Assembly (NCBI RefSeq): GCF_003334765.1
Contig: NZ_QOWT01000003.1
Source of the DNA: Escherichia coli
Lineage (GTDB): Bacteria > Pseudomonadota > Gammaproteobacteria > Enterobacterales > Enterobacteriaceae
Reading direction: 5' to 3' (one strand)
Length of the DNA: 64,000 nucleotides
Below are positions 7,413-43,124 of the stretch, piece by piece. How positions within the stretch are numbered: the stretch's first letter is position 1; the number at the start of each line of letters is the position of its first letter. Under the pieces are notes generated by a model. It searched no databases, was not told the origin of the DNA, and saw nothing but the letters and a program-made list of their open reading frames with translations. The position numbers were made by a program, and so were the translations under genes.

Positions 7413-7572
7413 GGTCACCGAATTCACTGTTGTTGGGGGCAAGATTGCAGCACAGCGACGGCAGGGTGTAAACCGGAACTTTCCGCAGCCACGGCCTTAT
7501 CATGCTTGCATCCGGCAACTAACTTTGGATAATGCCCGTTTTCAGAACACTTTCACAAGCGACTAAATCTTT

Positions 7573-8618: not shown

Positions 8619-8650
8619 GAAAGCATACGGGCGATGACAAATGCAAAACT

Positions 8651-8730
8651 GCCTGATGTGCTACGCTTATCAGGCCTATAAAGATGCACGATCGAGTAGG
8701 CTGGATAAGGCGTTTACGCCGCATCCGGCA
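8651..8730. repeat. REP/BIME pair (two inverted REP units)
   Basis: GCCTGATGTGCTACGCTTATCAGGCCTA and TAGGCTGGATAAGGCGTTTACGCCGCATCCGGCA, canonical E. coli REP palindromes. Confidence 0.85.
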
Positions 8731-8801
8731 TGGAAAACGCGCACTTTGTTATCAATCTGGGGCCAGCAAATGCTGGCCTGATTTGTTCTTGAGGGAAGAC
8801 T

Positions 8802-40826: not shown

Positions 40827-41906
40827 ATGTCTAAGATTTTTGATTTCGTAAAACCTGGCGTAATCACTGGTGATGACGTACAGAAAGTTTTCCAGGTAGC
40901 AAAAGAAAACAACTTCGCACTGCCAGCAGTAAACTGCGTCGGTACTGACTCCATCAACGCCGTGCTGGAAACCGCTGCTAAAGTTAAAGCGCCGGTTATC
41001 GTTCAGTTCTCCAACGGTGGTGCTTCCTTTATCGCTGGTAAAGGCGTGAAATCTGACGTTCCGCAGGGTGCTGCTATCCTGGGCGCGATCTCTGGTGCGC
41101 ATCACGTTCATCAGATGGCTGAACATTATGGTGTTCCGGTTATCCTGCATACCGACCACTGCGCGAAGAAACTGCTGCCGTGGATCGACGGTCTGCTGGA
41201 CGCGGGTGAGAAACACTTCGCTGCTACCGGTAAGCCGCTGTTCTCTTCTCACATGATCGACCTGTCTGAAGAATCTCTGCAAGAGAACATCGAAATCTGC
41301 TCTAAATACCTGGAGCGCATGTCCAAAATCGGCATGACTCTGGAAATCGAACTGGGTTGCACCGGTGGTGAAGAAGACGGCGTGGACAACAGCCACATGG
41401 ACGCTTCTGCACTGTACACCCAGCCGGAAGACGTTGATTACGCATACACCGAGCTGAGCAAAATCAGCCCGCGTTTCACCATCGCAGCGTCCTTCGGTAA
41501 CGTACACGGTGTTTACAAGCCGGGTAACGTGGTTCTGACTCCGACCATCCTGCGTGATTCTCAGGAATATGTTTCTAAGAAACACAACCTGCCGCACAAC
41601 AGCCTGAACTTCGTATTCCACGGTGGTTCCGGTTCTACTGCTCAGGAAATCAAAGACTCCGTAAGCTACGGCGTAGTAAAAATGAACATCGATACCGATA
41701 CCCAATGGGCAACCTGGGAAGGCGTTCTGAACTACTACAAAGCGAACGAAGCTTATCTGCAGGGTCAGCTGGGTAACCCGAAAGGCGAAGATCAGCCGAA
41801 CAAGAAATACTACGATCCGCGCGTATGGCTGCGTGCCGGTCAGACTTCGATGATCGCTCGTCTGGAGAAAGCATTCCAGGAACTGAACGCGATCGACGTT
41901 CTGTAA
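40827..41906 (+). CDS. fbaA: fructose-bisphosphate aldolase class II (359 aa)
   Basis: MSKIFDFVKPGVITGDDVQKVFQVAKENNFALPAVNCVGTDSINAVLETAAK... recognised. Confidence 0.98.
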   Translation: MSKIFDFVKPGVITGDDVQKVFQVAKENNFALPAVNCVGTDSINAVLETAAKVKAPVIVQFSNGGASFIAGKGVKSDVPQGAAILGAISGAHHVHQMAEHYGVPVILHTDHCAKKLLPWIDGLLDAGEKHFAATGKPLFSSHMIDLSEESLQENIEICSKYLERMSKIGMTLEIELGCTGGEEDGVDNSHMDASALYTQPEDVDYAYTELSKISPRFTIAASFGNVHGVYKPGNVVLTPTILRDSQEYVSKKHNLPHNSLNFVFHGGSGSTAQEIKDSVSYGVVKMNIDTDTQWATWEGVLNYYKANEAYLQGQLGNPKGEDQPNKKYYDPRVWLRAGQTSMIARLEKAFQELNAIDVL

Positions 41907-41930
41907 GATATTCCTTTCTGCTTATCTCAA

Positions 41931-42135
41931 GGCCCGCTCTGCGGGTCTTTTTTTCGCCAAAAGCAAAATTGCCTGATGCGCTACGCTTATCAGGCCTACA
42001 CGTATCCTGCAATATATTGAATTTGCAGGTTTTTGTAGGCCGGATAAGGCGTTCACGCCGCATCCGGCATGACAAAGCGCACATTGATATCTGTCTGAGC
42101 CCCGCTCTGCGGGGATTTTTTCGCCAAAAGCAAGG
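41931..42135. repeat. fbaA terminator plus REP/BIME pair, flanked by a duplicated 35-bp terminator-like module
   Basis: copy 1 CCCGCTCTGCGGGTCTTTTTTTCGCCAAAAGCAA (41933-41967), REPs GCCTGATGCGCTACGCTTATCAGGCCTAC and GTAGGCCGGATAAGGCGTTCACGCCGCATCCGGC, copy 2 CCCCGCTCTGCGGGGATTTTTTCGCCAAAAGCAA (42100-42133). Confidence 0.85.
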
Positions 42136-42263
42136 TGATTCAGATGAGAAATCTGTGATCTATTTGGCAAAATTATGCTTTATTGTTTACCCTTGTCAGA
42201 CTGCCCGTCATAAGGCGGCGGAGTGTATTTCTCCATTTTGAGTCAGTTGAAAAGGAATATTGA

Positions 42264-43124
<861 letters not shown>

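Follow-up and report, generated by a model that had tools for sequence, protein, structure and literature searches.

Two copies of the fbaA terminator bracket a BIME-1 element in Escherichia coli, a probable case of insertion with duplication of the target hairpin

The spacer between fbaA and mscS of Escherichia coli contains a BIME-1 element bracketed by two copies of the fbaA terminator module. We consider it likely that this arrangement arose in an Escherichia ancestor, when the element inserted into the terminator and duplicated it, that the resulting repeats later recombined with each other, and that the native terminator was kept. The anatomy of the spacer, its alleles, the single-terminator state of the outgroups and the same signature at other BIME-1 loci were observed directly. 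The polarity of the individual E. coli alleles, the activity of the terminators and the chemistry of insertion are inferred.

Organization of the fbaA–mscS spacer

The spacer lies in a 64,000-nt stretch of E. coli DNA (the window), to which all positions refer. The stop codon of fbaA, TAA, occupies positions 41904–41906. In MG1655, fbaA is 1080 nt long and is followed by a spacer of 357 nt, the same length as in the window. The features of the region are as follows.

40827–41906, plus strand: fbaA coding sequence, class II fructose-bisphosphate aldolase (open reading frame ending at 41906; RefSeq annotation under identical matches)
41930–41966, plus strand: module A, the native intrinsic-terminator module of fbaA and left copy of the duplication
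41967–41969, plus strand: AAT, remnant of the BIME-1 left arm (from comparison with 16 other BIME loci)
41970–42000, no strand assigned: Y-type REP of BIME-1 (pattern match 41971–41999)
42001–42033, no strand assigned: L linker of BIME-1, core CTGCAATATATTGAATTTGCA (Rfam ES036/CssrF match; conserved at other BIME-1 loci)
42034–42069, no strand assigned: Z1-type REP of BIME-1 (pattern match 42039–42068; inverted relative to the Y REP)
42070–42098, plus strand: right arm of BIME-1, TGACAAAGCGCACATTGATATCTGTCTGA (same motif 3' of the Z1 REP at 8730–8760 and in 17 of 17 loci)
42098–42133, plus strand: module B, right copy of the duplicated terminator module
42134–42263, plus strand: native upstream region of mscS (conserved across genera in the alignment; 3' of both terminators)
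42264–43124, plus strand: mscS coding sequence (open reading frame; annotation)

The duplicated terminator module that an earlier note had reported downstream of fbaA is present. It is 36 nt long and consists of a terminator hairpin, a T-run and CGCCAAAAGCAA. Module A (AGGCCCGCTCTGCGGGTCTTTTTTTCGCCAAAAGCAA, 41930–41966) comprises a hairpin at 41929–41949 (AAGGCCCGC-TCT-GCGGGTCTT), seven T residues at 41948–41954 and CGCCAAAAGCAA at 41955–41966. Module B (AGCCCCGCTCTGCGGGGATTTTTTCGCCAAAAGCAA, 42098–42133) comprises a hairpin at 42100–42114 (CCCCGC-TCT-GCGGGG), an A, six T residues at 42116–42121 and CGCCAAAAGCAA at 42122–42133. The repeat search returned the pair as two direct repeats, one of 24 nt with 88% identity (21/24; 41930–41953 and 42098–42121, spacing 168) and one of 18 nt with 100% identity (41949–41966 and 42116–42133, spacing 167), so the two modules are not unrelated sequences, the outcome that would have spoken against the note. 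Its description of the repeat as almost exact needs one correction: the final 18 nt are identical between the copies and include 12 bases outside the hairpin, but three hairpin positions and one T differ, and two of the hairpin changes turn a G·T pair of module A into a C–G pair of module B. In the 64-kb window, only five families of direct repeats reach 16 nt with copies no more than 600 nt apart, and two of the five are this module pair. Given that rarity, the repeat exceeds chance.

Both modules have the form of an intrinsic terminator, a GC-rich stem-loop followed by a U-run, with RNA folds of −14.1 kcal/mol (nine pairs) for module A and −11.6 kcal/mol for module B. Indeed, both were called as terminator-like (stems 41929–41949 and 42100–42114, a T-run after each), and the region holds six such sites as against 1.1 expected in shuffled sequences. 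The tandem terminators after fbaA are in this sense a prediction from structure.

Modules A and B are separated by 132 nt, made up of a Y REP, a 33-nt linker, a Z1 REP and a right arm of about 29 nt. The two inverted REPs noted earlier between the modules are thus confirmed (41971–41999 and 42039–42068), although the fuller identity of the insert is a BIME-1 with linker and right arm. The Y REP forms an inverted repeat with 42034–42048, and the same REP occurs in every BIME-1 locus collected; inverted Y and Z1 units of this kind are found at 15 other canonical loci. The Z1 REP also gave a partial, below-threshold match to Rfam naRNA4. The linker is single-copy in the window, shares its core CTGCAATATATTGAATTTGCA with other BIME-1 loci and matches Rfam ES036/CssrF on the minus strand at 41992–42034 with 47.3 bits, above the gathering score of 37.6. 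Since the linker of RIP/RIB elements is described as IHF-binding (PMC3333891, PMC2817692), the one at fbaA is, by analogy, a putative IHF-type linker.

BIME-1 elements end in two arms, with the family consensus TGAGACTGATGACAAACGCAAAAT on the left and ATGAACAAAGCGCACTTTGTCAACAATCTGA on the right, and the outer parts of these arms are inverted repeats (GAGACTGATGACAAA versus the reverse complement CAGATTGTTGACAAA). At fbaA, the right arm is retained, in a degenerate form in E. coli and in its canonical form in the E. whittamii ortholog. The left arm is reduced to AAT, beside which the native CAAAAGCAA mimics the CAAACGCAA of a left arm. The roughly 28 nt to the right of the Z1 REP were also considered as unique DNA; this was ruled out by the same motif at the second BIME of the window and at metagenome loci, and the segment was assigned as the right arm. 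Folding of the insert by itself gives a single long hairpin (−51.6 kcal/mol, z = −4.6). Judged by its sequence, it is a BIME-1 of the RIP/RIB type with a truncated left arm, i.e., more than a mere REP pair. The MG1655 annotation lists no repeat features in this region.

REP sequences were also encountered elsewhere. The second BIME of the window (8640–8790) has a Y REP, a short linker of 20 nt with no IHF-type motif, a Z1 REP and both arms. Just 5' of it is a stop codon (at about 8617), and 3' of it comes the hairpin GGCCAGCAAATGCTGGCC, of which there is no upstream copy. In addition, a 46.9-kb plasmid of E. coli O157 AR-0428 (NZ_CP044147.1) contains, at 7450–7484, 35 nt that match the Z1-REP region of several BIME-1 queries from chromosomes with 100% identity; this plasmid-borne REP copy has no annotated feature.

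A separate observation concerns the ends of the spacer, which form a perfect 10-nt inverted repeat: ATATTCCTTT at 41908–41917, just 3' of the fbaA stop codon, and AAAGGAATAT at 42251–42260, over the ribosome-binding site of mscS. Pairing of the two in a read-through transcript could mask the mscS start. The 5' half is missing in Citrobacter, and with about 0.1 such pairs expected by chance in a region of that size, the repeat may mean nothing.

Alleles of the spacer and turnover of the repeats

The region was matched in all 5426 complete E. coli genomes of the census. The right junction of the two-module allele is present in 3774 of them (69.6%). The other common allele, found in about 30% of genomes, is exactly 167 bp shorter and has one module: the hairpin of module A and its T7, with GGTGAT directly after. 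Module A is identical to the sole module of this short allele, and module B is missing from it. Single-terminator alleles free of REPs, which the earlier note had proposed to look for, are therefore common. The spacer has also expanded. In at least one E. coli strain, SW070917, the spacer measures 524 nt and holds three modules and two BIMEs, the latter identical to each other, and Escherichia sp. E1V33 likewise has three modules and two BIMEs. In E. whittamii, the order is module, BIME and a degenerate second module. In E. coli LH50-c and E105, module B is a chimera, half B-type and half A-type. A third allele was considered for O157:H7 strain TR01 (L212, 2385–2670), whose 271-nt spacer lacks the Y REP and module B and contains N's (tttntncagg); it was rejected as most likely an assembly or consensus error.

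In the relatives, the spacers of Citrobacter, Kluyvera, Klebsiella, Raoultella and Pluralibacter have one terminator, no REP and an order colinear with that of the short allele, so that relatives free of the structure, whose lack would have counted against the earlier note, do exist, with spacers of about 190 nt. In an alignment of eight spacers, taken from other genera and from Escherichia with the short allele, the order is colinear throughout (189–197 nt, one terminator, no REP), and module A is the positional homologue of the single terminator of the other genera. The short allele is also present in two divergent representatives labelled E. coli (L005 and L006). Because the other genera have a single terminator and no REP, one terminator is the ancestral enterobacterial state, with the BIME and the second module derived within Escherichia. 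The scan for MscS in species-representative genomes, from which the relatives were taken, recovered only four Escherichia loci, and none from E. albertii, E. fergusonii or Salmonella, so that the date of insertion is only loosely bounded.

Sequence divergence bears on the age of the insert. Over about 134 nt, the BIMEs of E. coli, E. whittamii and E1V33 differ by 10–14 substitutions and a few gaps, which is similar to the divergence of mscS in the same comparison (7.6–12.5%). Since insert and mscS have diverged between species to a similar extent, the insertion appears to be old and orthologous. The two BIME copies inside E1V33 differ by one base, and the arrays would accordingly be recent.

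Within E. coli, the haplotypes of fbaA and mscS carry a mixture of long and short alleles, and local trees do not separate the two; 7CC (short) and LH50-c (long) have near-identical flanking haplotypes and opposite alleles. We conclude from these comparisons that the module repeats recombine often. Because the insertion is old and common to E. whittamii and E1V33, most E. coli alleles with a single module probably arose secondarily, by precise deletion between the repeats. Given the intermixing on haplotypes, the polarity of any individual allele is tentative. The CGCCAAAAGCAA of the single-module allele was also considered as a remnant of the BIME left arm, which would have proved deletion. 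This was rejected, since the native spacers of other genera align with it and are of conserved length.

Two further observations were made on this part of the chromosome. In strain E69 (CP089930.1; L006, spacer 1310–1500), fbaA departs from K-12-like sequence at only 3–5 of 600 sites near its 3' end, and the 5' end of mscS differs from E. coli at 71–73 of 537 sites and is closest to that of E. whittamii, a pattern that indicates a breakpoint of recombination at the terminator module or close to it. Just past module B, the 7–9 nt that come directly after GGTGAT (42140–42148) are far more variable than the remaining spacer, both across strains and across species (TCAGATG, ACAGATG, GCAGCTG, GGACAGG and GTACCTA). 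Most strains with the long allele have T at 42140, and most with the short allele have A.

The same signature at other BIME-1 loci and its origin

Seventeen independent BIME-1 loci, 15 of them canonical, were collected from metagenome contigs with a pattern for the right motif. At each locus, the 90 nt to the left of the Y REP were aligned with the 110 nt to the right of the Z1 REP, and 306 flank pairings from mismatched loci served as the control (mean score 14.2, maximum 22). At nine of the 17 loci, the flanks aligned with scores of 23–46, each above all 306 controls. The repeat at these nine loci is the locus's own GC-rich hairpin, 19–28 nt long, with the left copy abutting the left arm and the right copy abutting the end of the right arm. 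The remaining eight loci have no flanking repeat, which could be due to decay, as in module B of E. whittamii, or to a different history.

Filled and empty alleles were found at several of these loci. Between uspB and pitA, the BIME-1 site is filled in 1940 of the 5426 E. coli genomes; the empty allele is 173 bp shorter and has a single bidirectional terminator, A7-GCGGGCCAGTAAACTGACCCGCTCG-T4. Between yqjG and yqjF, K-12 is empty with a single AAACGAGGAGCTTCCTCCTCGTTTTTT, a metagenome allele is filled, and strain Z0117EC0005 has three hairpins and two BIMEs. The agp–yccJ site is filled in 89 of 5426 genomes, and its empty allele has one hairpin. At rsmS–mscK (filled in 3881 of 5426), the empty allele again has one hairpin, but sequence divergence in the region prevents a clean definition of the junction. 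Where the junctions are clean, the duplication starts 0–4 nt 5' of the stem and ends 1–3 nt past it. The duplication at fbaA extends 19 nt further (36 bp versus 19–28 bp elsewhere). The earlier suggestion of a target duplication or recombination scar from REP mobility is supported by this recurrence.

Two observations on individual loci may be added. Downstream of fbp on metagenome contig OLIF01000049.1 (L091, 11688–12036), the repeats on either side of a BIME-1 match perfectly (23/23), AACGCCGGATTGCTCCGGCGTTT; of all cases found it is the cleanest, and it appears to be recent. This fbp is 96% identical to that of E. coli but is followed by a different gene, which shows that the host is another organism than E. 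coli proper and precludes a comparison of the locus with E. coli. For the filled queries of agp–yccJ (L170) and yqjG–yqjF (L172), exactly 89 of the 5426 genomes cover at least 80% of each, and the rare filled alleles at the two sites may mark the same E. coli lineage.

An origin of the fbaA–mscS alleles can be proposed as follows. A BIME-1, a palindromic element of about 130 bp with Y REP, IHF-type linker, Z1 REP and inverted-repeat arms, would have entered the terminator of the epd-pgk-fbaA operon and duplicated its target, i.e., the whole hairpin, the T-run and 12 more bases (36 bp), so that these came to lie on both sides. The locus would then be unstable because a long palindrome sits between close direct repeats. 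Exchange or slippage between the modules could remove the 167-bp unit precisely, giving the single terminator of about 30% of genomes, or add a second one, as in the arrays of three modules with two BIMEs; exchange could also convert one module toward the other. As for the chemistry, one nick per strand, a few bases past the stem and on opposite sides of a hairpin or cruciform, after which the element is joined and the gaps are filled, would yield a duplication spanning the palindrome. The obvious but putative enzyme is the REP-associated transposase TnpA-REP/RAYT. TnpA-REP is reported to bind the hairpins of REPs and to act on single strands, which it cleaves at C|T (PMC3333891), and CT occurs near the ends of both BIME-1 arms; its relatives insert without target duplication (PMC2817692), and the proposed chemistry does not follow from the known behaviour of TnpA-REP. 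The missing left arm and the long duplication at fbaA could reflect either a left junction at a CAAA–GCAA microhomology or a later conversion, from module B into module A, that lengthened the repeat.

More generally, we tentatively suggest that BIME-1 elements may have spread by inserting into intrinsic-terminator hairpins and duplicating the whole hairpin, the 19–36 bp being set by structure, with both boundaries a few bases at most from the foot of the stem, and not by a fixed length. If so, each strand would be cut once, the two cuts lying on either side of an extruded hairpin or cruciform, in an insertion mode unlike the duplication-free single-strand transposition assumed for REP/RAYT, and each new BIME-1 would be an intrinsically reversible and expandable unit.

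Several other explanations of the fbaA locus have to be weighed. The single-module alleles of E. coli might be the original, never-occupied state, with the BIME allele entering part of E. coli, or other Escherichia, by homologous recombination between lineages. This reading accommodates a single-module allele that is identical to module A and colinear with the outgroups, and inter-lineage recombination does occur here, as seen from the E. coli-like fbaA beside an E. whittamii-like mscS in E69. Yet any transfer would have been ancient, the insert being as diverged between species as mscS, opposite alleles sit on the near-identical haplotypes of LH50-c and 7CC, and the three-module arrays and chimeric modules show that the repeats recombine readily; we regard a never-occupied state as rather unlikely. 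Much less probable is an origin in two steps, in which slippage duplicated the module in tandem and BIME-1 was later inserted exactly between the copies. Tandem duplication by slippage is common, and the junction between two hairpins could be a favoured target, but the order hairpin–element–hairpin recurs with different hairpins at nine of 17 independent loci, each of which would need the same coincidence, and wherever the alternative allele could be examined cleanly (four loci), it has a single hairpin and in no case an adjacent pair. A chance likeness of the modules, or convergence of two GC-rich terminators, is practically negligible. Their general form is indeed common to intrinsic terminators, yet 18 consecutive bases are identical, 12 of them outside the hairpin, 21 of 24 match over the hairpin, close direct repeats of such size are rare in the window, and the allele series in steps of exactly one 167-bp period already refutes it.

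A different question is whether the BIME and the second hairpin are a selected regulatory device, either an attenuator or read-through barrier tuning mscS or a 3' structure stabilizing the fbaA mRNA. BIME-based candidate attenuators have been proposed upstream of several genes, "in some cases mscS" (Naville and Gautheret, PMC2965389), and the two substitutions in module B (G·T to C–G) keep a 6-bp GC stem with its U-run. However, both hairpins lie 5' of the conserved mscS upstream region and not within a leader, and the BIME is preceded by an unchanged module A, at which most fbaA transcripts should already end. The absence of the module from about 30% of E. coli genomes and the loss of the second hairpin by decay in E. 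whittamii further argue against an essential role, and a selected device seems improbable. Because module A is unchanged from the single-module allele, the upstream copy most likely acts as the native terminator and still ends fbaA transcripts. The BIME and module B, positioned between it and the conserved mscS upstream region, would be at most a back-up stop for read-through. The consequence for the fbaA–mscS region is probably small, since the native terminator is intact upstream and about a third of strains do without the extra copy. Insertion of a BIME-1 with duplication of the terminator remains the preferred account of the locus.

Comparison with known systems

How REPs and BIMEs spread has been a question since their discovery, and the pathway of REP dissemination is still to be elucidated (PMC8266576). 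A reproducible insertion signature, consisting of inverted-repeat arms, a terminator hairpin as target and duplication of the whole hairpin, narrows the possible mechanisms. It also explains both the location of BIME-1 at the 3' ends of transcription units and its precise loss. The filled, empty and expanded alleles at several loci of sequenced E. coli are natural substrates for experiments.

The insert at fbaA closely resembles BIME-1 (also RIP or RIB; Gilson 1991; Bachellier 1994, 1997; Oppenheim 1993; Boccard and Prentki 1993), as far as these elements are described in PMC3333891 and PMC2817692. It is a single unit of inverted Y and Z1 REPs with a conserved long linker, and it is extragenic, located at the 3' end of a transcription unit and present or absent between strains. 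It differs in that the fbaA copy has no left flanking arm. Duplication of a terminator hairpin on both sides, as at fbaA, is not mentioned in the accessible descriptions of BIME-1. The text of PMC3333891 contains neither "duplicat" nor "direct repeat", and no mention of terminator or hairpin duplication at BIMEs was found in the REP/BIME literature searched, the early BIME-1/RIP papers being outside that scope. Presence and absence of BIME-1 between strains is known, according to Bachellier 1997 as cited in PMC3333891. BIME-1 also has several properties of a MITE: it is short and non-coding, ends in inverted repeats, has on its flanks direct repeats that are specific to each locus, and occurs in both filled and empty alleles. 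In a MITE, however, the duplications are short and of a length fixed by the transposase, whereas those of BIME-1 (19–36 bp) follow the size of the target hairpin. REPs have been stated not to show MITE signatures (PMC3184786).

A further parallel is the "insertion with long target duplication" of Helicobacter pylori (Nobusato et al. 2000, as summarised in PMC1643837). In that summary, an insert is bracketed by long direct repeats that are single-copy without it, as is the case at fbaA, but the inserts are restriction-modification genes, the repeats are longer, and there is no tie to a hairpin or a repeated element. In BIME-1, a locus-specific repeat that is single-copy in the empty allele was found at fbaA, uspB–pitA, yqjG–yqjF and agp–yccJ.

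The system closest in its presumed enzymology comprises IS200/IS605 and TnpA-REP/RAYT, for which REPs and BIMEs are presumed substrates and which make single-strand cuts at C|T near REP hairpins (PMC3333891, PMC8266576, PMC3116915). That family inserts without duplication (PMC2817692), and BIME-1 departs from its peel-and-paste mode, having a duplication of 36 bp at fbaA and of 19–28 bp elsewhere.

Deletion and expansion between close direct repeats around a palindrome, by replication slippage, belong to established E. coli genetics. Such slippage explains the exact loss and gain of 167 bp and the chimeric modules at fbaA; it accounts for the turnover of the repeats, not for the origin of the first duplication. 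Precise loss also has a precedent, as the abstract of Bachellier 1997 reportedly speaks of "excisions of a whole BIME-1". Collectively, the local finding is a confirmed insertion polymorphism, ordinary in function. The duplication of a whole hairpin around BIME-1, of which a prior description in the early BIME papers is conceivable, is possibly a new property of a known element.
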